Assembly: GCA_031409655.1 (NCBI GenBank)
Contig: JANNXQ010000259.1
Coordinates: 25,914 to 89,913 of the forward strand
Source: Chthoniobacteraceae bacterium
Lineage (GTDB): Bacteria > Verrucomicrobiota > Verrucomicrobiia > Chthoniobacterales > Chthoniobacteraceae
Direction of reading: 5' to 3'
Length of the DNA: 64,000 nucleotides
Shown: piece after piece, positions 26,990 to 44,627 of the stretch
Layout: each line of letters opens with the position of its first letter
Numbering within the stretch: position 1 is the stretch's first letter
The notes under the pieces: generated by a model
Database searches by the model: none
The model's input: only the letters and a program-made list of their open reading frames with translations
Told to the model about the DNA's origin: nothing
Made by a program: the position numbers and the translations under genes

Positions 26990-27868
26990 TCACGGAATTT
27001 TCTCTCCGCTTGGACGCGGGGCGTGGCGGAGTTCGTGGGTCTTGGCCACGCTCAGGAATTCGTAGATGCCGTGGAGCCGGGCAAAGTAGTAGCCGGCCGC
27101 GCCGTCGAGGAAGCCGCGCTGCCACACATACACGTAGAGAAAACGGAGCAGGCCGCGGAAGGGGAGCGCCTGGGAGAGCTCCTTCAGCCGCCGCCGGGTG
27201 CCGACTTCGCTGCTTTGCAGTCGCCCGCTGCTGGCCCGCAGATGGCGGTCCAGCGCGACCCGGGCTTCCCAGTTTGAGTAGCGATTATGCTTTTCCACGA
27301 AGACGGCCACGGAGGGGAAGGCGTAGTGATCCATCTCGGACCGGAGCCGCGCGGTGGGGCCGGTGACGACGACGTGTTCGTGGACTTCATTGTCGCCGCT
27401 CTGGGTGTCGATGTCGGTGAGCTTTTCGTAACGCCCGAGCCGGTGCCGGAAGAGGCGCAGATTCCAATTCGGGTAATAGGCGTGCCGCAGCCACTGACCC
27501 ATGAACATGAAGCGGCGATTGATCCAATAGCCCGCCGTCGCGTGCTGCGGATCGGTGACGATGGCGCGGAACTCGGCCTCGGCCTCGGGCGGGAGCACCT
27601 CGTCCGCATCGAGGATGAAGACCCACTCGTGACGGAAGGGGAGATGCTCCAGCGCCCAGTTTTTCTTCTTCGGCCAGGTGCCGTTGAAGGCGAATTGCAC
27701 GACCTGCGCGCCATGTGCCTTGGCGATCTCCTGCGAAGCATCCGTGCTCGCGGAATCGACGACGAAGATCTCCGCGGCCCAGCGCACGGAGGCGAGGCAT
27801 CGGAGGAGATTGTCCGCTTCGTTTTTGATCGGGATGAGGATGGAAACGGGGACGCGGTCGGGGTTCAT
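26990..27868 (-). CDS. Glycosyltransferase family 2
   Basis: VSILIPIKNEADNL..CLASV, VVDSASTD, KKNWALEHLP, WVFILDADE, VHEH, KHNRYS; ATG overlaps the upstream GT4 stop. Confidence 0.92.
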   Translation of the reverse strand: MNPDRVPVSILIPIKNEADNLLRCLASVRWAAEIFVVDSASTDASQEIAKAHGAQVVQFAFNGTWPKKKNWALEHLPFRHEWVFILDADEVLPPEAEAEFRAIVTDPQHATAGYWINRRFMFMGQWLRHAYYPNWNLRLFRHRLGRYEKLTDIDTQSGDNEVHEHVVVTGPTARLRSEMDHYAFPSVAVFVEKHNRYSNWEARVALDRHLRASSGRLQSSEVGTRRRLKELSQALPFRGLLRFLYVYVWQRGFLDGAAGYYFARLHGIYEFLSVAKTHELRHAPRPSGEKIP

Positions 27869-30153
27869 GCGGGTCGATCGGGAGCGGCCACGAGGGACTG
27901 GAAGTCGTCGAGATACATCCCGGCGATCCGCGTCAGCGAGTAGTTTTCCATCTTCCGCAGGGCGGCGTCGCTGGCGCGGGCGAGGCCTGCGGGATCGCTG
28001 AGCAAGGTGGCGAGCTTTTCCGCCAGCGCGGCGGTGGGCTGCGACGCGCGGTGGTCGAAGACGAAGCCATCCACGTCGGCGCTCACGAAATCGCGGAAGC
28101 ACTCGAGGTCCGAGACGAGGGCGGGGCAGCCGTGCGCCATGGCTTCGAGGGGGGCGAGGCCGAAGGTCTCGCCGTGCTCGGCGAGGGACGGATAGACGAA
28201 GAGCGACGCGCGCAGGAGGTGGCTGCCGAGCAGGCCGGGATCGTAGATGGGGCCGGCGAAAGTGACGCCGCTCTCCGGCGCGCCCGCGAGGTCGGCGAGA
28301 CGCTGCTGATATTCGCGACCGCCGCCGCCGGCGCTCACGTCGGACGGGCCGACGATGAGGAGTCGCCAGTCGCCGAAGCGCGCGCGCGGGAGGAGGCGGA
28401 AGGCCTCGATGAGGAGATGCACGCCTTTCTCGGGATGCACGCGCCCGATGAAGAGGATCTCCTTTTCCCGCGTGCTGAAGGGGGGCAGGGACGCGGGTCG
28501 CGCGTGGAGCACTGGGTAGGGGATGGTGCAGGCCTGATGGCGCGGGACGCGGGCCTCGGCGAGGATGGCCTCCAGGACGACGCGCGAGACTGTCTGCAAA
28601 CGCGCGACGTGGCGGTAGAAGCGCATCTGGCCGCGGGGAAAGCGCGCGACGTGGACGTAGAGGCGGCCGCGGCGCGCGGAGCGGAGGAGGATGGGCAGCC
28701 AGAAGGTATTCGTGACGAGGATGTCGGCGGGCGGGAGCTGGCGCGCGACGCGCAGGGAGTAGAGGAGATCGAGCAACTTCAACCACAGGAGTGAGCGCGG
28801 GGTATCGGAGCCGCCGATGCGGATGTGGCGCACGCCGGCGATGGTCTCGGTCGTGGGCAGGCTCGGATACTGGCGGGAAATGTGGGTGACCTGGTGGCCG
28901 CGTTGCGCAAACTCCTGGCCGAGCGCGAACCAGACCTTTTCGACCGCGCCGCCGAGGAGTGGCGGCACGGGGAGGAAGGCGCCCTGGGCGATGGTGATCC
29001 GCAGCGGCGCCGCGGACCCGGGCAGTCCGGCATTCCGGGCGCTGAGGGCGCGGAAATCGGCGAGATATTCCTGCGCGATGACGGCCGCGGAGAAGCGGTC
29101 GCGGGCTTTTATGAAAGCGGCGGCGCCGAGACGCGGCAGGGCGTCGCGATGCGTGGAGAAGTACGCGAACGCCGCGCCCAGGCTGGCGGCGTCACCCGCG
29201 CGGGCGACGTAGCCATTGATCTGGTGATCGATGGCTTCCGTCATCGGGCCGAAGTCCGAGACGAGGATCGGCTTGGCCTGCGCCATGCCTTCGAGCACGG
29301 CCATGCTGAAGGTCTCGCCAGTGAGCGACGGCACGCAGATGACGTCGGCGGCGGCGACTTGCGCGGCGAGCTGCGCTTTGTCGTAGATCGGCGGGAGCAG
29401 CTCCACATTTCCCGCGAGCTGCCGCTGTGCGACATAGGCGGACATTTCGCGGAAGAAGGCGGTGTCCGCGCCGCTCTCGTCGGTCTGCGGGCCGACGGTG
29501 GCGAGCGTGTTTTGCGGATGCTGCGGCAGCGCGAGCTCGAAGCCTTTGATGAGCGACTCGAGGCCCTTGTCGCGCACGAAGCGGCCGACATACAGGAACC
29601 GCAGCCCGGCCCCGGTGCGCGGTGGAGACGGGGGCGGCTGCGCGTCGGGCGGGATGGCGACGCAATTCCAGATGCGCTTCAGATTGCGGATGCGCGGGTC
29701 GATGGCGAGCGCCTGCTGGACCACGGCGTCGCCACCGCCATACACGCGATCAAGGTTGCGGTAGAGCGGGACGATCGGCTTCGGCGTCCGATGGATCGTG
29801 TGCGCGCAGACGCCGATGCCGCGGCGGTAGCGCAGGAGAAAAGAGAACGCCGTGTGGAAGGTGGTCACGTCGGCGCTTTCGAGCACCGGCCAGAGGCGCA
29901 CGGCCCAGCGGAGCGCGTTGAGATGATCGAGCCACAGATTCGGATGCAGCGGGTAACCACGGAGCCGGATGTGGCGGATGCCGTGCGCGTCCGTTTCGCG
30001 CTCGGGGAGTTCGGGCACGGCGCGGGAGTAGGCGACGACCTCGTGGCCGAGCCGCGCGAATTCCCGGGCGAGCATCCAGTTCAGATTTTCGACGCCGCCG
30101 CCGCGGATGGGAGGAAAGACGAGCTGCTGCCCGAGCACGAGATTGATCTTCAT
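27865..30153 (-). CDS. Tandem (two-module) glycosyltransferase family 4 protein
   Basis: Two GT-B modules: GGGVE...GHEV...YVGRFVRDKG...ETFSMAVLEGMA and GGAVEK...GHQV...FIGRVHPEKG...ETFGLAPLEAMA. Confidence 0.9.
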   Translation of the reverse strand: MKINLVLGQQLVFPPIRGGGVENLNWMLAREFARLGHEVVAYSRAVPELPERETDAHGIRHIRLRGYPLHPNLWLDHLNALRWAVRLWPVLESADVTTFHTAFSFLLRYRRGIGVCAHTIHRTPKPIVPLYRNLDRVYGGGDAVVQQALAIDPRIRNLKRIWNCVAIPPDAQPPPSPPRTGAGLRFLYVGRFVRDKGLESLIKGFELALPQHPQNTLATVGPQTDESGADTAFFREMSAYVAQRQLAGNVELLPPIYDKAQLAAQVAAADVICVPSLTGETFSMAVLEGMAQAKPILVSDFGPMTEAIDHQINGYVARAGDAASLGAAFAYFSTHRDALPRLGAAAFIKARDRFSAAVIAQEYLADFRALSARNAGLPGSAAPLRITIAQGAFLPVPPLLGGAVEKVWFALGQEFAQRGHQVTHISRQYPSLPTTETIAGVRHIRIGGSDTPRSLLWLKLLDLLYSLRVARQLPPADILVTNTFWLPILLRSARRGRLYVHVARFPRGQMRFYRHVARLQTVSRVVLEAILAEARVPRHQACTIPYPVLHARPASLPPFSTREKEILFIGRVHPEKGVHLLIEAFRLLPRARFGDWRLLIVGPSDVSAGGGGREYQQRLADLAGAPESGVTFAGPIYDPGLLGSHLLRASLFVYPSLAEHGETFGLAPLEAMAHGCPALVSDLECFRDFVSADVDGFVFDHRASQPTAALAEKLATLLSDPAGLARASDAALRKMENYSLTRIAGMYLDDFQSLVAAPDRPA

Positions 30154-32642: not shown

Positions 32643-33341
32643 TCATAGACCTCCGTAGCGGCGTTCGCGCTTGTGGTATTCGTCGATGGCTTCGCGCAAT
32701 TCGGCCTTGCCGAAATCGGGCCAGAGCTTCGGGGTGACGTGGATTTCGGTGTAACTGAGCTGCCATAGCAGGAAGTTCGACAGCCGCAGCTCGCCAGATG
32801 TCCGGATGAGCAGATCGGGATCGGGAATGCCGCGCGTATAGAGGTGGGCGCCCACGACTTCCGCGTCGATGGATGCGATGTCGCGCTGGCCCGCAGCGAC
32901 TTCGCGGCAGAGTTCCTGGACGGCATCGACAAGCTCGGTGCGGCCGCTGTAGTTCAGCGCGAGGATCAAGGTGGTGGCCGTGTTGGCGGCGGTCTGCGCG
33001 GTAGCGTCGCGCAGGGCAGTCTGGCAGCTTGCGGGCAGTTCATGCAGCCGGCCGATGGCCTGGAGTCGCACGTTGTTTTTCATCAAGGTGGGCATTTCCT
33101 GGGTGATGAAATGTTCGAGGAGCAGCCACAAGGCGCTGACCTCGGCTTCGGGCCGGCGCCAGTTCTCGGTCGAGAAGGCATAGACGGTGAGATACTCGAC
33201 GCCGAGTTCGACGCAGGCCTCGGTGACGGCGCGCACGGATTCCGCGCCCTGCTCGTGACCCTTGATCCGCGGCAGCCCGCGCTCCTTTGCCCAGCGCCCA
33301 TTGCCGTCCATGATGATGGCGATGTGGCGGGGAGGGGTCAT
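32643..33341 (-). CDS. uppS: Undecaprenyl diphosphate synthase (cis-prenyltransferase)
   Basis: HIAIIMDGNGRWA, YAFSTENWRRP, ALNYSGR, PDPDLLIRTSGELRLSNFLLWQ, RRYGG. Confidence 0.97.
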   Translation of the reverse strand: MTPPRHIAIIMDGNGRWAKERGLPRIKGHEQGAESVRAVTEACVELGVEYLTVYAFSTENWRRPEAEVSALWLLLEHFITQEMPTLMKNNVRLQAIGRLHELPASCQTALRDATAQTAANTATTLILALNYSGRTELVDAVQELCREVAAGQRDIASIDAEVVGAHLYTRGIPDPDLLIRTSGELRLSNFLLWQLSYTEIHVTPKLWPDFGKAELREAIDEYHKRERRYGGL

Positions 33342-33352
33342 GGGGAAGGGGG

Positions 33353-33455
33353 AACATCGAACGTCGAACGCCGAACGCTGAACATCGAACACCGAGCGTC
33401 GAGCACCGCGGAGTTCGTTCGATGTTCGATGTTCGATGTTGGAAGTTCGATGTTC
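33353..33455. repeat. Heptamer tandem-repeat hairpin, (TCGAACR)n ... (TTCGATG)n, between purA and uppS
   Basis: AACATCGAACGTCGAACGCCGAACGCTGAACATCGAACACCGAGC ... GTTCGATGTTCGATGTTCGATGTTGGAAGTTCGATGTT. Confidence 0.88.
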
Positions 33456-33456
33456 A

Positions 33457-34797
<1,341 letters not shown>

Positions 34798-34866
34798 TCA
34801 GACTATCGGTCGTCCACTAGCGCGCAAGCGTCGAAAAGGGCCGCCGGGCCTTGCTGCCGCAGGCGC

Positions 34867-35283
34867 TCAAGCCTCCGCGGAGAAGGCGCCGATGAGGCGC
34901 TCCACGGTCGTCTCAAATTCGCGGTCGTCGCTCATATCGAGCATCAGGCGGGACTTAAGGCGCAGGGAGGGGACGGTGCCATCGCGCAAGATCACGAGCA
35001 GGCGCACGGCGCGTTCTTCGACGCCGCGATGATCCGCCAGGATGTTTTCGAGGTCCGTAAATCCGCTCTCACTGTAAGCCTTCGTATAGACCGCGATGGT
35101 GAAGCGCGACTCGAGCACCCCGCGCTCCATTTCGTCGAGCAAAGCGGCGCCGAGCCGGAAGTCGCGATAATCGACGCAGAGCCGAAGGCCGGCGGCTTCG
35201 AGCCGTGGGACCAGCGTCTTGCGGACCCACTCCTGGTCGGAATGGCGGTAGCTGAGGAAGGCGTCGTAGGGACCTTTGGACAT
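34867..35283 (-). CDS. Standalone TIR domain protein (TLR-like, putative catalytic Glu retained)
   Basis: YDAFLSYRHSDQEWVRKTLVPRLEAAGLRLCVDYRDFRLG...MERGVLESRFTIAVYTKAYSESGFTDLE: TIR box1, BB loop and alphaC Glu. Confidence 0.9.
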   Translation of the reverse strand: MSKGPYDAFLSYRHSDQEWVRKTLVPRLEAAGLRLCVDYRDFRLGAALLDEMERGVLESRFTIAVYTKAYSESGFTDLENILADHRGVEERAVRLLVILRDGTVPSLRLKSRLMLDMSDDREFETTVERLIGAFSAEA

Positions 35284-35292
35284 GGGTTTGGG

Positions 35293-38200
35293 TCAGGGGT
35301 TGGCGACCGAGATGTTTGGGCGGTCGATCAGGGTGGTGGCTTCCTTGAGGAGGATGCCGAATTCGAGTTCGTTCCAGAGCCGGCGTGGGGCGCCGACCTC
35401 GCGGCTCTGGCCTTGCTGGATCTGATCGTAGGTGTCGAGGGCTTTGCGCAGCCACCGCTGCGCCTCAGTGGCGTGCTCCGCGCGCTCGCCGTCGCTGAGA
35501 CGCTTCTCACGGCTGAGCTGATGATGGGTCAGGGCGAGGAAGATCTGATCCTGCTGGCGGCCGTCCTCGAGCGCCATCAGGGCGGAGGCGGCGGACTCGT
35601 CGGTCACCTGAGCGAGCGCTTCGCGCACTTGCACCTCGGCCCAGGTTTTGCGGGAGCGATCGAGGGTCTCCCGCGCTTTGGCAAAATCCCCGACGCGGAG
35701 ATACACGGCGCCGAGGGTGTTGAGGCGAAAGTAATTTGGGTCGGCCTCCGCGGTCTTCTCGATGGTGGGCAGGAGTTCGCGGAGCCGGGCGACGTCCGCG
35801 CGGGGATCGAGCACGAATGGCCAGGCAAGGCGCAGGGCAAACTTGCCCGCCCCGTGAAACTTCGCCCACATGTCCTCGAGGGCCTTGAAGTAGGGGGCTG
35901 GATCGTCGGGGTGGAGCTTGAGTTGCAAGCCGGCACGGCGCTGCCACGGGCCGGGGTCGTCCAGCGCCAGCTCCGCCGCTTGGTTGACGGCCTGGAGGCA
36001 GTCTGCCCAGTGCCTCGTCTCGTCCGTGGCCCGGCCTCGGCGGGAGCAATCCAGAGCCTGGTCGAGATGGATGGTGGCGAGCTGCGTCCACGGTTCGTGG
36101 TCCAGAGGATCCTGCGCCGCCATCAGCGCGCAGTCCTTGATCGCGTCCTCCCAGCGGTGCAGTTCGGTGCGCATCCGGGCCCGCAGGGCGATGGTCGGAG
36201 CCCACAACTTTTCCCCGGGCTGGACGCCGAGCAGCGTCCAATTGAAATAGTGTTCCGCCTCGGCCCAGCGTTCGCTCGACTGGAAGGCGTCGCCGCAGCG
36301 CCGGAGCTGGGCAGGCAGGGGGTCGTCTCCGGAGGCGCGAATGGTCGCCTCGAGGTGCCAGGCGGCGGCGAACCAGCGCCCACTGTCTTCGCAGAAAGCC
36401 GCTTCTCGCTGGTGAAATTTCCCGGGCGGGAGCCGGGGAACTTGCGCGAGATAGTCCGTCTTCAGCCGCTGCCACTGCGGCGGCGATTTTTGCAAATCCG
36501 CGGGCCCGAGCGCAGCGCCGGTGATCGTCGCCGCGGTGACGAGTTCGGCCCGGCCGCGGAGATCGCCCGTCGGCAGGTGGTCAGGCGCGATATTCCAGAG
36601 ACGCGCCTCGTCCAGGCGGAGCTGCGGCGCCCTGGAGACGGCGCCGCTGGCCCGAGTCGTGGAGTAGTGCGGGCGGATGCTGGCGAAGCTCAAGGTCAGG
36701 ACCCGCTTTCCCGCGGCATCAAAGGCGGCGCTCCGCACTTCGGTCTGGTGAGGGAGGATGGCGATGAGTTCGCCGGTGCGGGCGTCCCACACGCGCGCGC
36801 GGCGATCGGCGCAGCCGGTGATCACGCGGGAGCCATCGGCGCTAAACGCGGCATCGAGGACGACGCCGCCGTGCGGCAGGCGCGTGGTGGCAGCGGCCTT
36901 TTCACCGGACCATCGCGCGAGATCGTAAAGGACGGCCGAGCTGTCGTAGCTGGCGGTCAGGAGCGTCTGCCCATCGGGGCTGAAGCGCGCGACGGTGAGG
37001 TCGGCACTGTGGATCTTTTCGATCCGCAGGAGCTCGCGATAGGGCGTCGCACTCAGGTCCCAGATCGCCGCCGCGTCGTCGATGCCCGCGGTGGCGAGGC
37101 GCTGCATCGGCGGGTCAAAGGACGCGAAAGTCACGGCCTCGCGATGCGGGAGTTCGCCGCGGAGGGCACCGGTCGCGGCGTCGAAAATCCGGGCGGCGCC
37201 CGTGCGGACGATGCTGTCGCCGCTGCCAGTCACGGCCAGCGTGCCATCGGGACTGAAGGCGATGAAGGTGACGGCGTGAGCGTGCTCGAGAGGCGTGATC
37301 TTTCCGGTAGCCGGCTCCCAGAGCGTGACCATGCGCGACTGTCCGTCCGCAGCGCGGCTGACGACGAGCAGGCGCCGGCCATCGGGCGGGGCAAAGGCGA
37401 GCGCGGTGATTTCGCCGCCGGGCGTCAAGGGGGTGCCGATCCCCTCCGCGCTGCCCACCTTCCAGACGCGCACCTCGGCCGTCGCGGAGGGACCGCCGCC
37501 CGCGGCGATGCGCTGCCCGTCCGCGCTGTAGGCCACGCACGGCACCGGGCCGGGCATCGTCAGGCGCGGCGCGATCGGCTCCCCGCTGGGCGAGACCAGT
37601 TCCACGATGCTCGTTCCTTTGGCATCGCCTCCGGACGCGGTCAGGATGCGTTCGCCGTCCGGGCTGAAAGTGGCCGCGCTCACGGGGCGCTCGAATTCCG
37701 GCGGCGGCGGCATGGCGGTCATCAAGTCCCAGACGCGCACCACATCTCCGCCCGAGGCCACCACCCGGCGGCCATCTTCGGCAAAGGCGGCGGAGACCAC
37801 GCTGCCTTCGTGCCGCAGCGGCGGGAGGAGCAGCCGTCCGGTGGCGAGATCCCAGACGCGCGCTGCCTTGTCGCGGCTGCCGGTGAGCAGATGGCGCCCA
37901 TCCGGGCTGAAGCGCGCCTGAAAGACCCAGCCCTCATGCGAGAGGGTGAGGAGGGTGCGGCCATTGCGGATATTCCAGACGCGGGCGGTGCCATCGTTGC
38001 TCGCGGTGGCCACGCGCAGGCCATCCGGGCTGAAGGCGGCCATGGCCACGCGCGCGGTGTGCCGCAGGGGTGGAGTGGCAGGCTCGCCCGTCTCCGCATC
38101 CCAGACCCGCGCCTCGCCGACTGAGGCCTCTCCCGCGAGGCCGCTCGCGGTCACGAGCGATCTCCCGTCGGGGCTGAATTCCACCCAATTGACGGTCGTC

Positions 38201-40785
38201 TCGTGGGCGATGCGCAGGCGCGTGGAGGATTCGTCGCGGGGTGCGGAAAAGGTCCAGATCAGGGCCGCGCCGGGCTCCGGCTTGCGCGCGTCCCCGAGTG
38301 CGATGGCCAGGCGATCGCCCTCGGGATTGAAGGCGATCCGATTGACGCGAGTCGGGACTGGCTGCGCCCAGATTTCCCCGGTGGCGCGATCCCAGACGGC
38401 CACTTCTCCCGCCGCGCCGTCGGGCGCCTCCACCCAGTAGGCGATCCGATCACGGCTCGGACTGAAGATGACCATGCGCACTGCGCCGAGGGTCTCCACG
38501 CGACCAGCGTCGGTGCCCGCTGCCGACTCCCAGACCTGGACCGCGCCGTCCTTGCCCCCGCTCTGCCCAAAGCCGACCGCGACGATCCAGCCATCGGGGC
38601 GAAAGGCGACCGCATTTGCTGGCCGTGGCGGGGTGGAAACGAGCGGGTGCGGATTTCCCTGCGGATCCCAGAGGTGCGCGACGCCGGATTCCTCGCCAAA
38701 GGTGGAGGTGACCGTGACGATGCGGGTGTCCGGGAGGGCGGAGTCTTTGCGGAGCGTGGGCTCCACGGTGACTTCGGCCGCGGCGAGGCGCGCTTGGGTC
38801 ACGAAGTGCGCGAGGCGCGGGGTTTGCCGGAGCGCGATGGAAAGCCGCTGGCGGTGGGCTGCGCGCCGGGTCTCGTCCTGCGGCAGGGTTGCGACGCCGT
38901 GCGCTTTCATTTCCGTGACCGCGCTCTCCGCCTCCCGCAGGCTCTCGGCAAACCAGAGCGCGGCCAGGGAGAGGTCGCCTTTGGCGATGGCCTGGGTGCC
39001 TTCCTTCACCGTCGTCCGCGCGAGCAGGAAAGACTTTTCACCTCCCTCCCGGGCGACGGTGAGGGCGTGCTGCCGCGCGACTACGCCGGCCCGCCACATC
39101 AGCCCGCCCCAGCCCGCCAGGAGGAGGATGATGGTCGTGAGCGCCGCTCGCTTGAGCAGGAGGCGCTGCCTTTGGGCGCGCTGGCTGGCGGCAAGGAAGT
39201 CGTGCTCCACGGGATTGAGCTGCGGGTAGGTGAAAGCCTCCGCCAGCATGCTGCCGCGCCAGAAGAGCGAGCCCTCACCGCTCTCCCGCCATTGCTCGGA
39301 GGCGTTGCGCAACATCAGCCGTCCGCGCATCTGCACGCGCTTCTCGTCCAGCCACTCCACGATGCGCGGCCAGTGCCGCACGAGGGCGGGATGGCTCACC
39401 GTGACCCGGCGCGGCTCGCTCTGCCCGGGCTCGATCACGCGGAGCAGCCCCGCCTCGCAAAACTCCGCGACGATCTCGTCGAGCCGCTCCTCGGGCGCGG
39501 CCGCCCCGCCCGGAAAATCGAGGGGCACGGGCGTGACCGAAAATCCGCTCCCGAGATGGGGCGTGAGCAGGCGCATGAAAAGACCCTTGATGGCGTCCCG
39601 CGCGATGCCGGGCTGGCGGTACACGCGCTCCGCTGCCCGCTGGAGCGCCACCCAGCCGCCACCGAGCTGCCGGTAGATCTCAAAGCTGATCCGATTGCGC
39701 AGCCGGCCGCCGCGTTCATCCCACATCCGGCGCAGGCTGAACTGGAGCAGCGCGAGGGCAGCGGGATCGCCCTGCACATCGCGGAGCAGCCGCTCGATGA
39801 CCCCTTCCTCAAAGATCAGCCCGACGCGCTGCGCCGGCTCCTCGACGATCTCGCGCAGTTCATTGGCGTCGAAGGTGACATTGAGCTGGGCGTCGTTGAG
39901 CCAGCGGGTGAATTCGTCGCGCCCGGCGAGGCGCGTGAGGGTGTCCGCATCGCCCACGACGATCGCCGTCTGCCCCAGATCCACCCAGGCCGCGAGCGCG
40001 CGCAGAAAGGCGGTGACGTCCGGCCCGGCGGCGAAGGCGAAAATTTCCTCGAACTGATCCACCCCGATCACCGCATCGCGGCTCGCGGGCGCCGTCTCCT
40101 GGATGAAACGCGCCGGCTCCGCCCGCAGGCGGGCGACGCGGGCCGCCAGCTCCCGCGGATCGTCCGTGGGGGCGAGGATGCCCACGAGATTTTCCAGCGG
40201 ACTCCCCCCTGCCGCCAGCACCCCGAGACAGCGCAGGGGCGCGGCCGTGGCGTCGTCCGCGACCGGGCCGCGGCGGGCGAGCCGTGGCCAGAGTCCCTGC
40301 TGGAGCAGAAAGGAGCGGCCACTCCCTGGGGCGCCGATGATCACGAGCAGGCGATTGGCGCGCAGGATGGTCAGGGCGTCCGTCATCAGCCGGGACCACG
40401 CGCGCCGCTGTGCTGGGGAGGCGTCGTCCAGGGTCTGCGGCGAGGCAAAGGGAAACTCCGCAGTCCGGAGATCCGCGCCGGCTTCGGGGTCATAGGGGGC
40501 GAGTTCGCCGCGCGGGAGACGATCCGCGGGCACGTCGTAGCGGTAGAGTGAATTTGACCAGTAGCTGAGCAGGCTCTGCGCGGAGGACCGGTCCGAGTCC
40601 GAGTACAGCCGTGCGCCCATGGCCGCGACTCCGTGCAGGAACTCGATGACCTCGCCGCACAAGGCCTCCCGGTTGCCGCCTTCGCCCTGGAAGCGCTCGA
40701 CGAGCCGGTCATGCTCGGCATTGATTTCGTCGATGGTCGTCAAGGGCGCCTTCGGCGGAGGCTGGATGGGGTTCGTTTCAGGCAT
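35293..40785 (-). CDS. NLR-like protein: unassigned helical N-domain + nSTAND-type NTPase (degenerate Walker A) + TM helix + WD40 repeats + TPRs
   Basis: LLVIIGAPGSGRS, VIGVDQFEEIF, ELREIVEEPA..VGL.FE.G, LALLQFSL..MW, Y..LGG, HPALVRHWP; hydrophobic ALTTIILLLAGWGGLMW; about 16 WD-like repeats (H...V..A.FSPDG...TAS.D..ARVWD); C-terminal TPR-like helices (NTLGAVYLRVGDF..A). Confidence 0.9.
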   Translation of the reverse strand: MPETNPIQPPPKAPLTTIDEINAEHDRLVERFQGEGGNREALCGEVIEFLHGVAAMGARLYSDSDRSSAQSLLSYWSNSLYRYDVPADRLPRGELAPYDPEAGADLRTAEFPFASPQTLDDASPAQRRAWSRLMTDALTILRANRLLVIIGAPGSGRSFLLQQGLWPRLARRGPVADDATAAPLRCLGVLAAGGSPLENLVGILAPTDDPRELAARVARLRAEPARFIQETAPASRDAVIGVDQFEEIFAFAAGPDVTAFLRALAAWVDLGQTAIVVGDADTLTRLAGRDEFTRWLNDAQLNVTFDANELREIVEEPAQRVGLIFEEGVIERLLRDVQGDPAALALLQFSLRRMWDERGGRLRNRISFEIYRQLGGGWVALQRAAERVYRQPGIARDAIKGLFMRLLTPHLGSGFSVTPVPLDFPGGAAAPEERLDEIVAEFCEAGLLRVIEPGQSEPRRVTVSHPALVRHWPRIVEWLDEKRVQMRGRLMLRNASEQWRESGEGSLFWRGSMLAEAFTYPQLNPVEHDFLAASQRAQRQRLLLKRAALTTIILLLAGWGGLMWRAGVVARQHALTVAREGGEKSFLLARTTVKEGTQAIAKGDLSLAALWFAESLREAESAVTEMKAHGVATLPQDETRRAAHRQRLSIALRQTPRLAHFVTQARLAAAEVTVEPTLRKDSALPDTRIVTVTSTFGEESGVAHLWDPQGNPHPLVSTPPRPANAVAFRPDGWIVAVGFGQSGGKDGAVQVWESAAGTDAGRVETLGAVRMVIFSPSRDRIAYWVEAPDGAAGEVAVWDRATGEIWAQPVPTRVNRIAFNPEGDRLAIALGDARKPEPGAALIWTFSAPRDESSTRLRIAHETTVNWVEFSPDGRSLVTASGLAGEASVGEARVWDAETGEPATPPLRHTARVAMAAFSPDGLRVATASNDGTARVWNIRNGRTLLTLSHEGWVFQARFSPDGRHLLTGSRDKAARVWDLATGRLLLPPLRHEGSVVSAAFAEDGRRVVASGGDVVRVWDLMTAMPPPPEFERPVSAATFSPDGERILTASGGDAKGTSIVELVSPSGEPIAPRLTMPGPVPCVAYSADGQRIAAGGGPSATAEVRVWKVGSAEGIGTPLTPGGEITALAFAPPDGRRLLVVSRAADGQSRMVTLWEPATGKITPLEHAHAVTFIAFSPDGTLAVTGSGDSIVRTGAARIFDAATGALRGELPHREAVTFASFDPPMQRLATAGIDDAAAIWDLSATPYRELLRIEKIHSADLTVARFSPDGQTLLTASYDSSAVLYDLARWSGEKAAATTRLPHGGVVLDAAFSADGSRVITGCADRRARVWDARTGELIAILPHQTEVRSAAFDAAGKRVLTLSFASIRPHYSTTRASGAVSRAPQLRLDEARLWNIAPDHLPTGDLRGRAELVTAATITGAALGPADLQKSPPQWQRLKTDYLAQVPRLPPGKFHQREAAFCEDSGRWFAAAWHLEATIRASGDDPLPAQLRRCGDAFQSSERWAEAEHYFNWTLLGVQPGEKLWAPTIALRARMRTELHRWEDAIKDCALMAAQDPLDHEPWTQLATIHLDQALDCSRRGRATDETRHWADCLQAVNQAAELALDDPGPWQRRAGLQLKLHPDDPAPYFKALEDMWAKFHGAGKFALRLAWPFVLDPRADVARLRELLPTIEKTAEADPNYFRLNTLGAVYLRVGDFAKARETLDRSRKTWAEVQVREALAQVTDESAASALMALEDGRQQDQIFLALTHHQLSREKRLSDGERAEHATEAQRWLRKALDTYDQIQQGQSREVGAPRRLWNELEFGILLKEATTLIDRPNISVANP

Positions 40786-42298
40786 GGCTGATCACGTCGA
40801 GCCGCTGGTCGGCCGTCTGCCGCAGTTTGCTGATTTCGCCGCAAAGGGTCTTCAGGTCCGCATCCGTCCGGCTGAAACCTTCGCTCACCGCGGGGCGCAG
40901 CTTGCGAAATTCGCAGCGGATCGCGCGGGCCACGGCGGGATCGCTGGCGGCCTTGGCGAATCCGCCAAGCGCGACTTCGAGGCCGGCCATTTTTTCGGGG
41001 AGCTTGAATTCGTCGATCCAGCGCGATGGCTTCAGACGGCGGAGCGGCTCGGCGATGCCCCGCCAGACCTGCCGCACGCGCAGGATGTCGGGCGATTCGC
41101 TGTGATCGAGCACATGCATCTGGTCATCGCTGATCTGGAGGGCGTCGTGGTTGGAGATCAGCCGGTTGACGCTTTCTTCGATGAGCTCGAGGGCCTTTAC
41201 CCCCGCGGCAAAATCCTCGATGCGTTGGCGGGCTTCGTCGTCGAACTCACTGGCCCGGAGATCGGCCAGGATCTCCCCCTGCCGCTTGATCAGATCGGGC
41301 AGCGGGAGCTGGCGCGCCTTTTCCTTGAGGCTCCCATTGAGCCGCGTCGGCTCGCTATGGAGCACCGCGGCGATGCCCTCGATCCCGGCCTTCAGGAGTT
41401 CCACGTCCTGGGCACAGACTCCGTCCGTCACGTCCGCCTCCGCGGCCAGGAGGATCGCGATCCACGGGGGCGGGTCGCCCGGCGGCGCAAACTCCGCCGC
41501 CCGCGATTGCACCGTCGTCAGCCGCGCCTCCAGATTGGTGAAAGCCGCCCCGACCTTTTCCCAGGAGCGGTCCAGAGCCTCCGCTTCCAGGGTGCTTTGC
41601 GCGCGCTTCTCGAGGAGGTCGAGCTTGCGGTCGATGACGACGTTGAAGGCATCCTGCGCGGAGTGAAAATCGTCGTGCAGGAGCTTGTCGTGGGTGAGCA
41701 GCTCGATCTGTTCGCAGGCGCGTTCGAAGACGCTCAGGAATTGCTCGACCCGCGCCTGGACTGCCGCCGTGCCGAGAAACTGCCGCAGAGTCGCGACGCC
41801 GAGGCGCGCGGATTCGGCGCTCTTCTGGTTCAGGGTTTTCCGGTCGCCGCAGAGCTGCGCGAGCAGGGTATTCATCATCCCGGTGCGCTGCGTCAGGTCG
41901 GAAAGGTCCACTCCATTGAGGCGCGCGATGAGCAGCCTGGGCTGCACGCCCGGGCCGCCGAGGTTCTCTTTTGGCTCAAAAAAAAGCGGGATGAACCGCG
42001 CCTCCCGCGCCGCGGGATCGAGGTGCATGGTCAGGTTGTCGAGGAGCTGGCAAAGCGGGTCCGCGAGATAACTCGAGGTGATGACGGCCAGGGTGCGACG
42101 GGACTGGGTCACGGCGTTTTCCAGATTGTCGAGGATGGTGGCGCCATAGCGGCCATCGCTGCGGGTCACGGCCTTCAGGCCCGCGGTGCGTAGCGGCAGC
42201 AGCACCTGCTCCTCCGCGAGCTCCTTGTCGCCGTCGCAGCAGGCCACGAAGACATCGTAAGACACCGGCTCAGGGGCGGCGTCTGGTGGAGTATTCAT
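40778..42298 (-). CDS. TIR domain (divergent, probably non-catalytic) fused to an uncharacterised alpha-helical domain
   Basis: YDVFVAC...D......L...GL...GATILDNLENAVTQSRRTLAVITSSYLADPLCQLL...RFIPL, then about 340 aa helical region with KLLHDDFH; stop overlaps the start of the STAND gene by 8 nt. Confidence 0.8.
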   Translation of the reverse strand: MNTPPDAAPEPVSYDVFVACCDGDKELAEEQVLLPLRTAGLKAVTRSDGRYGATILDNLENAVTQSRRTLAVITSSYLADPLCQLLDNLTMHLDPAAREARFIPLFFEPKENLGGPGVQPRLLIARLNGVDLSDLTQRTGMMNTLLAQLCGDRKTLNQKSAESARLGVATLRQFLGTAAVQARVEQFLSVFERACEQIELLTHDKLLHDDFHSAQDAFNVVIDRKLDLLEKRAQSTLEAEALDRSWEKVGAAFTNLEARLTTVQSRAAEFAPPGDPPPWIAILLAAEADVTDGVCAQDVELLKAGIEGIAAVLHSEPTRLNGSLKEKARQLPLPDLIKRQGEILADLRASEFDDEARQRIEDFAAGVKALELIEESVNRLISNHDALQISDDQMHVLDHSESPDILRVRQVWRGIAEPLRRLKPSRWIDEFKLPEKMAGLEVALGGFAKAASDPAVARAIRCEFRKLRPAVSEGFSRTDADLKTLCGEISKLRQTADQRLDVISHA

Positions 42299-42513
42299 GG
42301 AAGGAATCCCGTGCTGGCTGAGTCCGAATCACCGGTGCGACGCCCGCCGAGGTCTGGCAAAATCCGCGCGTCCGTCTGCACTCTCGGGGGAACGCTGGAC
42401 CCTTCTTTGCGCACAATGCAACCAGAATTTTGACCGGGCTGCGGGGCCCGCTTGCGCTCCCGGGTGGACGTTTGGGATTGCCAGCCTTCACCGGATCGTA
42501 AAACACGTCTGCC

Positions 42514-43248
42514 ATGGCCCTGCCCTCGCTGCTCTCCACCAAGCCCATCGACCCGCGCGACCGGCTCATTTTCGCCCTCGATGTGCCGACGAAGACGGAG
42601 GCACTGGCGTGGATCGACCGCCTCGGCGACGCGGTCACTTTCTACAAGCTGGGCCTCGAATTTTGCATGAGCGGCGAGTACTTCGCGGTGCTCGATGCGC
42701 TGGTCGCGCAAGGGAAGCGGGTCTTTGCCGACCTGAAGTTTGCCGATGTTCCGGCGACGGTCGGTGGGGCGGTGGCGAATCTCGCGGGACGCGGGGCGAC
42801 GCTTTGCACGCTGAATGCGACCACGGCCGCCTACGCCGCGGCGGTACCGGTGAAGGGCGCGATGCAATTGCTGGCGGTGACGGTGCTCACGAGCATGGAC
42901 GCCACGGATCTCGCGGAGCTCGGCTGGTCCGGCCCAGTGGAGGAACTCGTCTCCCGCCGCGCCCGCGCCGCGGTGGCGGCCGGGATGGACGGGCTCATTT
43001 GCTCCGGTCTCGAAGCGGCGCGGCTGCGCCGCGAAGTGGGCGCGGGACCGATCCTCGTGACCCCCGGCATCCGCGTGGCAAGCGACCGGGGGAGCGATGA
43101 TCAGAAACGCACCATGACTCTCGAGGAGGCCTTCCGGGCGGGAGCGGATCACATCGTCGTCGGGCGTCCGATTCGGAAGGCGGCTGATCCACGCGCTGCC
43201 GCGGAAGCGATGCAGGCGGAGATCGCGGCGCTCTTTGCCGCGCGCTGA
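42514..43248 (+). CDS. pyrF: Orotidine-5'-phosphate decarboxylase
   Basis: LIFALDV, YKLGLE, FADLKFADVPATV, AVTVLTS, VTPGIR, DDQKR, IVVGRPI. Confidence 0.96.
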   Translation: MALPSLLSTKPIDPRDRLIFALDVPTKTEALAWIDRLGDAVTFYKLGLEFCMSGEYFAVLDALVAQGKRVFADLKFADVPATVGGAVANLAGRGATLCTLNATTAAYAAAVPVKGAMQLLAVTVLTSMDATDLAELGWSGPVEELVSRRARAAVAAGMDGLICSGLEAARLRREVGAGPILVTPGIRVASDRGSDDQKRTMTLEEAFRAGADHIVVGRPIRKAADPRAAAEAMQAEIAALFAAR

Positions 43249-43308
43249 GCGTATGACAGGATTGACCCTTGAGGGTGCGGCGGCCTTCCCGCTATCCATG
43301 TCTGTCCA

Positions 43309-44172
43309 ATGAGCGAACCCACTTCCCCATACGCCCACCCCGAAATCCTCGTGAGCACCGAGTGGCTCGCGGAGCACCTGCACGATCCCGGCACCCGGAT
43401 CGTCGAGAGCAATGAAGACGTGCTCCTCTACGACACCGGCCACCTCCCCGGCGCGGTGCACATCGACTGGCGCCAGGATCTGCAGGACGCCCTGGTGCGC
43501 GACTATATCACGCCCGCCGATTTCGCCGCGCTCTGCGCCCGCCATGGCATCACGCCAGACACCACCGTGATTTTCTACGGCGACAAATCCAACTGGTGGG
43601 CGACCTACGCCCTCTGGGCCTTCCGCCTCTTTGGGCACACGAAAGTGAAACTGCTCAATGGCGGCCGCGACAAGTGGGTGAAGGAAGGTCGCGCGGTCAC
43701 CAAAGAGAAGCCGAAGCACGCTGCCGCAAACTATCCCACGCCCCCGAAACGCTACGACGACGAGATCCGCGCCTTCTTCGACGACGCCCTCGCGCAAAGT
43801 CGCGCCAGCCGACCGCTGATCGATGTGCGTTCGCCCGGCGAGTTCAAAGGCGACGTCACCCACATGCCCGAGTATCCGCAGGAAGGCGTGCTCCGCGGCG
43901 GCCACATCCCCGGGGCGAAGAGCGTCCCGTGGAAGACTGCCTGCAACGAAGACGCCACCTTCAAGTCTGCCGACGAACTGCGGAAGATCTACACCGAAGG
44001 CTGCGCCCTCGCGCCCGATGCCGAGATCGTCGCCTACTGCCGGATCGGCGAGCGCTCCAGCCACACCTGGTTCGTGCTCACCTATCTGCTCGGCTACGAG
44101 AAGGTGCGGAACTACGACGGCTCCTGGACCGAGTGGGGCAATCGCGTGCGGGCGCCCATCGAGCGCGGATGA
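43309..44172 (+). CDS. Tandem-rhodanese sulfurtransferase (SseA/CysA-like)
   Basis: [38 protein letters not shown], active-site [18 protein letters not shown]. Confidence 0.95.
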
Positions 44173-44627
44173 GTGCCTATCCCGCCAAGCTGGAGGCCAT
44201 CATCGGGCTCTTCGAGTCGCTCCCGGAGGAGGAGAAACGCGAGAACCTCATCGCCTACTCGGAACAGGCCAAGCGCCACGAGCCGAAGTCCGGCGAGACC
44301 TTCCAACTCGAAGACGTGCGCAAGGACGAGGAATGCACGGATACCGTGGGCGTCTTCCTGCAAGTGGACGCGGAGCGCCAGGCGCGCTTCCGGATCACCC
44401 TCGGCCCTCAGGTCCAGACGCTGACGAAGGCCATGACCTCGATCCTCTGCAAAGGACTCGAAGGCACGACGCTCGACGAGATCCTCGAACTGCCCGCTGA
44501 TTTCGTCCCAAAGATCGTTGGCGGCCACCTCGTCCGCATCCGTTCGCAGACCGTCTATTACATCCTCACGCGGATGAAGAGCGCCTGCCGAGTGTATCTA
44601 AATCGGTTGCGCGCGGCGACAGCTTAA
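44169..44627 (+). CDS. SufE-family Fe-S metabolism / sulfur-acceptor protein
   Basis: ATG overlaps the sulfurtransferase stop; [10 protein letters not shown] (conserved Cys), [13 protein letters not shown]; a common partner of sseA-like genes. Confidence 0.8.

Follow-up and report, generated by a model that had tools for sequence, protein, structure and literature searches.

What does a bacterial STAND receptor act through when it carries no enzymatic effector of its own? The question is raised by three adjacent genes that lie between purA and pyrF in a 64,000-nucleotide stretch of DNA from a Chthoniobacteraceae bacterium (contig JANNXQ010000259.1, assembly GCA_031409655.1); this whole stretch is called the window below. 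Gene A encodes a TIR domain followed by an all-helical domain (HD), gene B a large STAND protein that begins with a small N-terminal domain (NTD) and ends in WD40 and TPR-like repeats, and gene C a stand-alone TIR. The original prediction described three coupled, co-oriented genes of 506, 1830 and 138 amino acids between purA and pyrF, the first two overlapping by 8 nt and the last two lying 9 nt apart, and the locus has exactly this arrangement (A/B overlap at 40778-40785, B/C gap at 35284-35292). It went too far in proposing an undescribed kind of system, as the outline is already in print: the accessible text of PMC8195603 and of bioRxiv 10.64898/2026.10.19.760177 describes nSTAND1 effectors supplied in trans and active together with inactive TIRs.

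The answer that we favour, with a probability of about one half for the whole, is that the gene B product is a membrane receptor whose predicted periplasmic sensor would cluster the gene A product as a pseudo-TIR adaptor, which in turn would recruit the catalytic TIR of gene C. In this reading the core is a rare but conserved conflict cassette of two genes, of which the window locus, at the same even odds, would be a three-gene form gained by horizontal transfer.

A conserved gene pair in changing surroundings

We examined seven loci that encode an HD protein: the window locus; L051 and L063, which are two loci of one Chthoniobacter sp. metagenome-assembled genome; L056 (genome G699); L055 (G596); L068 (G993); and L069 (G1003). 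At all seven, a STAND/WD40 gene bearing the NTD lies directly downstream of the HD gene, mostly overlapping it by 4-8 nt. The partner carries an nSTAND1 domain, then a hydrophobic helix, then WD40 repeats at six of the seven; that of L069 runs off the contig. The earlier suggestion that the STAND protein lacks an effector and may be supplied with one in trans agrees with what we see, as no effector is fused to it and a neighbour bearing one is conserved at 7/7 loci. Conservation of the neighbourhood, which the original prediction put forward as a check on the three genes, holds for the two-gene core, present at every locus, and not for the third gene: the glutamate-bearing, separate TIR gene of 138 aa is an add-on that is seen directly at the window locus only. 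Each locus is flanked by different housekeeping genes (prc/ridA; rlmN/mutS; an SDR gene and a phosphoketolase gene; pfkB), and the pair therefore fits a mobile two-gene cassette.

Some of these loci have peculiarities of their own. L051 and L063 hold divergent TIR-HD plus NTD-STAND copies ~200 kb apart on one contig, and L063 (G712:C30:222500-240500) adjoins an opposite-strand TPR-S-domain gene. At L055 (G596:C166:9000-28999), the HD protein has a weak trypsin-like N terminus; its partner, of 1033 aa, consists of NTD, transmembrane helix and WD40 repeats without a recognisable P-loop; and the neighbours are a trypsin gene, a Roc-COR-EAD1-trypsin gene and an AAA gene.

The family to which HD belongs is much larger than simple searches indicate. 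A word-based protein search with gene A yielded just two relatives, which are 78% and 47% identical to it, and orthologues of gene A stand at 78, 47 and 45% identity. An exhaustive HMMER search with a TIR+HD profile, built from the alignment of these word-search relatives, returned 1619 cluster representatives at a threshold of E ≤ 1e-3; of these, 479 also pass E ≤ 1e-10 and 51 pass E ≤ 1e-30. Many of the matches are ~470-540 aa long and align end to end; others cover only positions ~160-500 of the profile, at their own C terminus. We scanned the region N-terminal to HD in 54 proteins chosen from the 149 matches listed, namely the partial and long matches and six full-length ones. TIR was found in 20 of them, CHAT in 11, CHAT with a weak TIR in one, EAD7 in four, TIR plus EAD7 in one and EAD1 in two, with EAD2, EAD10, SEFIR/TIR, FHA and a ParA-like domain plus TIR (P0150) in one protein each; nine showed no family in this region and one was a TIR-only match. 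Across these proteins, sequence comparison presents HD as a constant module behind variable effector or recruiting domains, which is the pattern that Kaur et al., in the accessible text of PMC7159879, give for core components of conflict systems.

HD has no Pfam match at E ≤ 0.01, and none in NCBIfam or PADLOC. In the AlphaFold2 model of gene A (predicted local distance difference test score, pLDDT, 93.4; predicted template modelling score, pTM, 0.86), the HD part is made of long helical bundles. Fold searches with the whole model returned only generic four-helix bundles for HD, over residues 195-330 (Z ≤ 14.5), while a sequence profile search of the PDB gave nothing below E 0.1 and the ESM Atlas no usable match; we make no claim that the fold of HD is new. 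No relatives were found with alignment A1 in the genome and metagenome contig collections, and P0130 was not found among metagenome contigs. One HD orthologue, P0126 (432 aa, on an ENA contig of 49,142 bp), is 43% identical over 293 residues and is without a TIR; its tail is ~140 residues of unrelated, Arg/Gly-rich sequence, for which truncation or a frameshift may account.

The NTDs of the STAND partners at the window locus and at L051 share 44-45% identity. The window NTD is modelled as three helices (AlphaFold2, pLDDT 80.6), has no Pfam match and returned only generic three-helix bundles in the fold search (Z ≤ 7.9). A homotypic adaptor, in which the NTD and HD would be related, was considered and rejected: a single BLASTP comparison of the STAND N terminus with the helical part of gene A gave E 3e-4, and profile-profile comparison with hhalign gave a probability of 0.4, with no sequence similarity between the NTD and HD, so that the BLASTP match is put down to chance.

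A fused TIR without the catalytic glutamate and a separate TIR with it

The TIR glutamate is necessary for NADase activity. Gene A is recognisably a TIR protein (Pfam TIR_2, PF13676, residues 16-135, E 1.2e-10, 42.3 bits against a cut-off of 28), and where the S-x-W-x-x-x-E region of a catalytic TIR would have its glutamate, gene A has Leu86. In alignment A2, which holds 68 TIR-HD proteins, the catalytic column is glutamate in 46, aspartate in eight and another residue in 14. The window protein (P0001) groups with its three nearest relatives, P0004, P0005 and P0125, in a subclade that has L, L, I and M in this column, respectively; all four have also lost the neighbouring tryptophan, and the remainder of their TIR is conserved. 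The TIR of gene A is likely a pseudo-enzyme, and the distribution of residues over the alignment marks the loss of glutamate from the fused TIR as derived and clade-specific.

Gene C is the stronger TIR match of the two (Pfam TIR_2, residues 9-131, E 4.2e-20, 72.9 bits against the same cut-off of 28). It is 32% identical to the gene A TIR, and its E79 aligns with the glutamate of other TIRs. The original prediction had proposed a pseudo-TIR in gene A and an enzymatic TIR in gene C, and the catalytic residues agree with this, with the glutamate lost from a family position that keeps it in 46/68 proteins and E79 kept in gene C. Orthologues of gene C occur in metagenomes at 96-61% identity. We found no close stand-alone relative in 401 genomes of the class, where the best matches are TIRs inside larger open reading frames (ORFs), 34-37% identical.

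The TIR-HD proteins of L051, L063, L056, L068 and L069 keep the glutamate, and the extra TIR gene is absent at L051, L063, L056 and L068; the contig of L069 ends within the STAND gene. For a STAND orthologue of gene B (P0006) and for a protein 64% identical to gene C (P0282), one ENA contig each is on record, with a length of 12,388 bp in both cases, so that the two genes probably lie side by side there too. The observations are most simply read as follows: the active TIR would originally have been part of the pair itself, and in the window subclade catalysis would have shifted to a small separate TIR, with the fused TIR kept as a scaffold.

A STAND protein with an altered Walker A and a predicted membrane span

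The domain calls made at the outset, TIR for gene A, STAND-transmembrane-WD40-TPR for gene B and TIR for gene C, are confirmed by Pfam and hydropathy. The NTPase of gene B departs from the canonical Walker A GxxGxGK[ST] at the lysine. Arginine stands at this position, as GSGRS or GSGRH, in the window, P0006, L051, L063 and L056, and L068 and L069 have GSGKT. The NTPase regions of the five loci with arginine are only 29-52% identical. P0006 (1847 aa) is a full-length gene B orthologue, 52% identical over the 620-residue query region. In a set of 120 nSTAND1 proteins, defined as matches to gene B residues 1-620 and including P0002, GK[ST] is kept in 115. The Walker B motif is kept as DQFEE in the window and is DDFEE in L051; it is degenerate in L063, L056 and P0006.

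The same set of proteins bears on topology. A hydrophobic segment with a Kyte-Doolittle score of at least 1.9 is present in 113 of the 120 and, among the proteins listed, mostly lies 500-1200 residues from the start. Lysine and arginine residues flanking it average 5.6 on the N-terminal side versus 2.6 on the C-terminal side, the N-terminal side being the richer in 111/120. The segment is present also in the partners at L051, L056, L055 and L068. By these measures nSTAND1 proteins, as a family, look like single-pass membrane receptors. One span combined with a positive-inside bias would place the NTPase in the cytoplasm and the WD40/TPR part outside it, a topology predicted from hydropathy and charge. 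Membrane kinases of Planctomycetota are predicted, in the accessible text of PMC11032199, to have a cytoplasmic kinase, one transmembrane helix and periplasmic WD40/TPR arrays. In the literature searched, we found no passage on the transmembrane topology of nSTAND1 proteins. At the DNA level, the WD40 blades of gene B are visible as a repeat family (D1).

Insertion between purA and pyrF

G005, a genome of the same family and another genus, has the gene order of the window, with a sigma-54 activator, uppS, purA, pyrF and rhodanese. Because purA and pyrF are only 162 bp apart there, the 7.6-kb block that separates them in the window is, on this comparison of gene order, an insertion. A hairpin followed by a run of T upstream of purA is conserved in the G005 purA-pyrF spacer, which has no gene upstream of the hairpin on the same strand. 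By that conservation the hairpin is ancestral, lies outside the cassette and forms the right-hand limit of the insertion; being common to both genomes, it places the cassette between itself and pyrF. It may be a putative purA leader element. The GC content of the cassette is 0.66-0.715 versus 0.62-0.67 for the flanks. No integrase, tRNA or terminal repeats were found at the borders of the insertion.

The adjacency of purA and pyrF, which the original prediction had named as a point to check in relatives, is found in G005 and not in two genomes of the same genus, G001 and G002 (loci L013, L014, L017 and L018). In these the two genes are on separate contigs and have other neighbours, purA lying beside mnmA and a hybrid histidine kinase and pyrF beside lpxD/skp/bamA. 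The purA-pyrF junction is therefore a site of rearrangement in the genus.

A patchy distribution had also been named as a point to check, and the survey of genomes agrees with it. A full-length gene A is present in one of 41 related genomes, the window's own (G000), with one further TIR-only match; the cassette was not found in three genomes of the same genus or in 37 further relatives. The HD profile matches three of the 401 genomes of the class and, in the order around G712, three of 301; both counts take in the query genomes. G000 has an additional TIR-like match at G000:C234:3352-3660 (E 9.6e-12 against the TIR part of alignment A2).

Assembly support and features of the locus

The three-gene region is no assembly artefact. 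All three frames are open across 7.4 kb, and a Logan contig of 8106 nt spans 34693-42798 with zero differences, although its run is possibly the window's own source. Contigs of a second sample bridge both the C/B and the B/A junction, and a contig from a separate study, ~93% identical, bridges the B/A junction. A relative at ~90-93% DNA identity, from another study, has pieces of genes A, B and C.

In four of four metagenome runs, contig depth over purA (33400-34735) is tens of times above that of the cassette; purA fragments of many organisms map to 33400-34735, and the cassette has only the depth of a single population. A promoter scan gave no promoter-like site. A terminator scan gave nine terminator-like sites, none at a gene end, versus 4.5 ± 2.2 in shuffled sequences, and Rfam had no match at E ≤ 0.1 over 33000-44500. 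Elsewhere in the window, on the reverse strand at 27865-30153, a double glycosyltransferase of 762 aa matches the Pfam family GT4-conflict (PF20706, E 5e-28) as well as general GT4 models; Kaur et al. 2021 link GT4-conflict proteins to conflict systems. The features of the locus and its flanks are collected in Table 1.

Table 1. Positions of the three genes, their domains and the flanking features in the window
Feature	Position	Strand	Description
Gene A	40778..42298	-	506 aa; ORF call and translation; TIR, then C-terminal all-helical domain (HD)
Gene A TIR	41849..42259	-	Residues 14-150; Leu86 at the catalytic-glutamate position (codon 42041-42043)
Gene A HD	40784..41842	-	Residues 153-505; ~340 aa, all-helical; no Pfam, NCBIfam or PADLOC family
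Gene B	35293..40785	-	1830 aa; ORF call; NTD, nSTAND1 NTPase, transmembrane helix, WD40 propellers, TPR-like C terminus
NTD	40540..40734	-	Gene B residues 18-82; three-helix bundle; conserved only in STAND proteins that follow an HD protein
nSTAND1 NTPase	39274..40392	-	Residues 132-504; PF20703, E 7.3e-58, 197.4 bits against a cut-off of 27.1
Walker A	40312-40335	-	Residues 151-158, GAPGSGRS; Arg157 replaces the canonical lysine
Transmembrane helix (predicted, single)	39076..39147	-	Residues 547-570; Kyte-Doolittle 1.68 over 19 aa
WD40 propeller region	36679..38349	-	Residues ~813-1369; WD40 E 1.5e-57 and many propeller models; predicted sensor
TPR-like C terminus	35293..36600	-	Last 435 aa; TPR_14 E 1.3e-5, TPR_2 E 1.7e-5, TPR_12 E 4.6e-5
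Gene C	34867..35283	-	138 aa; ORF call; stand-alone TIR with E79 at the catalytic position
purA	33457-34728	-	Adenylsucc_synt, E 1e-175; flank of the three-gene block
pyrF	42514-43248	+	OMPdecase, E 7e-48; flank of the three-gene block
Hairpin and T-run	34757..34790	-	7-bp stem, then six T; ~30 nt upstream of the purA start

Relation to known systems

nSTAND1 proteins and effectors in trans have been described in the accessible text of PMC8195603 and PMC7159879. The former, by Kaur et al., gave nSTAND1 its name and includes STAND proteins that use neighbour-gene effectors through shared adaptor domains, among them a STAND-FGS gene beside a TIR gene, and PMC10907252, as far as its text is accessible, has an nSTAND1 protein with EAD8 beside an EAD8-trypsin gene. 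The EAD-coupled systems of PMC7159879 and PMC8195603, in the same portions of those papers, resemble the window operon in combining nSTAND1 with a repeat sensor, in being patchy, in having a small non-enzymatic domain at the STAND N terminus where others fuse an effector, and in encoding a TIR or caspase-like effector in an adjacent gene. They differ in that their coupling is a homotypic EAD or Death-like pair, whereas the NTD and HD of the window are unrelated and no EAD model matches at E ≤ 0.01 (EAD5, E 0.096). HD is further unlike an EAD in its length of ~340 aa and in itself carrying EADs in some members of the family, and in the window protein a transmembrane helix separates the NTPase from the sensor.

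The TIR-ParA systems (FxsC/FxsT) combine a single active TIR with at least one inactive TIR, in some cases fused to nSTAND1, according to the accessible text of bioRxiv 10.64898/2026.10.19.760177. Like the window, they place an active TIR beside an inactive-TIR protein, sometimes with nSTAND1, and their inactive TIRs are proposed there to act in multimerisation. A further likeness is the HD-family member P0150, which combines a ParA-like domain, a TIR and HD. The window differs in that genes A-C have no match to ParA, CbiA or AAA_31 and none to the NCBIfam FxsC or FxsT model, and the arrangement differs from that given in the preprint passages in that it is the HD protein, rather than the NTPase, that bears the inactive TIR. 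The Planctomycetota Ser/Thr kinases of PMC11032199, in the portion accessible, share with gene B a cytoplasmic nucleotide-using module, a single transmembrane helix and long WD40/TPR arrays, and differ in that their output is a kinase and not STAND plus TIR.

Gene B also recalls Avs and bacterial NACHT proteins, STAND NTPases with a repeat sensor that are thought to oligomerise on a ligand and activate an effector. Those proteins are single cytoplasmic polypeptides with a fused effector, whereas gene B has no match in PADLOC-DB 2.0.0, its effector in trans, a transmembrane helix and the lysine-to-arginine change. Thoeris shares with the window a stand-alone small TIR, and gene C is a weak ThsB match; ThsA (SIR2 or transmembrane, with SLOG/Macro) was not found, and no ThsA model matches A or B. 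The MoxR AAA+ and vWA components of the vWA-MoxR ternary systems (VMAP/iSTAND/TERNS3) are absent among the ORFs scanned around the window, L051, L056, L063 and L068.

Two eukaryotic systems offer analogies. Animal TLR-MyD88/MAL signalling, with a repeat sensor, one transmembrane helix in TLRs and a cytoplasmic TIR-TIR assembly, would resemble the proposed layout, as would plant RRS1/RPS4, where the accessible text of PMC13732033 has an inactive TIR paired with an active one. The heterodimer 4c6t of that plant pair is among the structural matches of the gene A model (Z 13.8). Both differ from the window, in which STAND lies between the transmembrane helix and the TIR adaptor, and no common descent of the architecture is implied.

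Each named system compared thus has a defining feature that the operon lacks: a shared EAD, MoxR/vWA, ParA, ThsA or a PADLOC STAND model. The earlier remark that the arrangement matches no named system held in the PADLOC run, which returned no model for A or B. In the main texts of the literature searched, supplementary data aside, we found no passage on HD, on the NTD-HD pairing or on the lysine-to-arginine clade. The accessible part of a 2026 Nature survey of STAND proteins (PMC13581612) yielded nothing on membrane-spanning STANDs or partner genes, and its supplementary tables may list the clade. The operon fits the STAND/TIR conflict systems of the Aravind type in kind, without a match to the named systems compared.

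Discussion

We read the gene anatomy, the insertion, the pairing, the glutamate loss, the lysine-to-arginine change and the conserved transmembrane segment as parts of one relay. A cue would be bound by the WD40/TPR part of gene B, probably in the periplasm, and binding would alter the oligomeric state of the STAND protein. The HD protein, docked at the cytoplasmic NTD/NTPase side, would thereby become clustered, and its TIRs would form an array. In ordinary members of the family, this could switch on the HD protein's own glutamate-bearing TIR; in the window subclade, the fused TIR lacking the glutamate might instead scaffold or nucleate the TIR of gene C, which would cleave NAD+. The outcome would be growth arrest or death of an invaded or damaged cell. 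A layout of sensor, adaptor and enzyme was already suggested in the original prediction; of the readings at hand we rate it the best, and the comparative data add to its support. The adaptor relay, the NADase activity and the antiphage role that went with it remain inferences. A bolder form of the proposal would put the logic of TLR adaptors on a STAND chassis, with a periplasmic WD40/TPR sensor joined by one transmembrane helix to a cytoplasmic STAND that, with arginine in its Walker A, no longer hydrolyses NTP, a new heterotypic NTD-HD contact and a pseudo-TIR that nucleates a catalytic TIR. Immunity or self-destruction would then respond to a trigger beyond the cytoplasm, such as the entry of a phage, an attack by a predator or through cell contact, or damage to the envelope. 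As a complete package, this bolder form is tentative and we doubt that all of it is right.

Several observations weigh against the relay. The NTD and HD are unrelated, so that the homotypic principle of the EADs fails and the proposed contact would have to be heterotypic. The lysine-to-arginine change in Walker A means that the STAND of this clade may have no NTP-driven switch at all, and the window's transmembrane score of 1.68 is below the threshold of 1.9 that most relatives pass, at the same position. In its model, the TIR of gene A looks closer to scaffold TIRs (TRR-2, Z 19.2; MyD88, Z 19.1; TIRAP, Z 16.4) than to SARM1 (15.5). The best sequence matches of gene C in the PDB are the TIRs of TLR15/1/6/2; these carry the same glutamate, and E79 is therefore no proof that gene C is active. 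The link between glutamate loss and an extra TIR comes from one locus seen directly and one, P0006/P0282, inferred. PADLOC-DB 2.0.0 has no model for A or B at E ≤ 0.01 and gives weak TIR matches for C; NCBIfam has none for A and only sub-cutoff ones for B (TolB propeller) and C (retron TIR). The flanks at the window, L051, L056 and L068 are housekeeping genes, with no defence island.

Other explanations have been considered. The same hardware could serve another purpose, the nSTAND1-transmembrane-WD40 protein being a general signalling platform with TIR as one of many outputs, in a module for envelope or environment signalling or programmed cell death and not for phage defence. In the precomputed Pfam lists, which are abridged and were counted by eye, BTAD/SARP (PF03704) is listed in at least 58 of the 120 nSTAND1 proteins, kinase or cyclase domains in many others and TIR_2 in only three; housekeeping flanks and the want of a PADLOC match for A and B point the same way, and the accessible text of PMC11032199 assigns a signalling role to the periplasmic WD40/TPR arrays that membrane kinases carry. 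We nevertheless consider a signalling module unlikely, since the partners of HD (TIR, CHAT, trypsin-like and EAD) are the repertoire that Kaur et al., in the text accessible, tie to conflict systems, the distribution is very patchy with a different insertion site at each locus, and L055 lies beside Roc-COR-EAD1-trypsin genes and L063 beside a TPR-S protein. Another possibility is that a glutamate-bearing TIR, gene C here and the fused TIR elsewhere, makes an NAD-derived messenger for an unlinked effector or for the HD/STAND protein, without depletion of NAD+. In Thoeris the signal is produced by small TIRs that stand alone, and gene C matches PADLOC ThsB1 weakly (E 1.4e-5); neither the operon nor the scanned neighbours contain a ThsA-like, SLOG, Macro, SAVED or other messenger-binding domain, however, and a messenger seems distinctly improbable.

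It is also conceivable, though very unlikely in our judgement, that both TIRs are pure scaffolds or regulators, with gene C capping or inhibiting the assembly and the killing done elsewhere, for instance by HD on the membrane or by an unlinked partner. Both TIRs do match non-enzymatic TIRs of the TLR/MyD88 type best, by structure and by sequence, and HD consists of long helical bundles with no assigned function. A constant HD behind N-terminal domains that vary among known effector types is, on the other hand, the pattern of an adaptor and not of an effector, and the glutamate kept in 46/68 TIRs of the family suggests selection for catalysis. That the locus is a decaying relic, in which the losses of the TIR glutamate and the Walker A lysine are steps towards a non-functional state, we find hard to credit. 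Two hallmark catalytic residues are indeed missing and the orthologue P0126 appears truncated or frame-shifted, but the three frames are open over 7.4 kb, the glutamate-less state is kept in the 78%, 47% and 45% orthologues with the rest of the TIR conserved, the arginine is common to five loci whose NTPase regions are 29-52% identical, and the relative at ~90-93% DNA identity from another study has pieces of all three genes. The relay from receptor through pseudo-TIR adaptor to catalytic TIR remains the reading that we prefer.

The locus is rare and uncharacterised, and the outline of its kind is already known. If the relay is right, a large, uncharacterised helical adaptor domain that has no model in Pfam, NCBIfam or PADLOC, and for which the TIR+HD profile gave 479 cluster representatives at E ≤ 1e-10, would join the bacterial STAND systems. 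The known antiviral STANDs sense cytoplasmic phage proteins; bacterial STAND/NLR-like receptors could then also sense cues beyond the cytoplasm. The conserved change of the Walker A lysine to arginine makes it doubtful whether NTP is still used by STAND proteins of this clade, and the fused and the separate TIR would form a natural bacterial partnership of a dead with a live TIR, parallel to the TIR adaptors of animals and the paired NLRs of plants.

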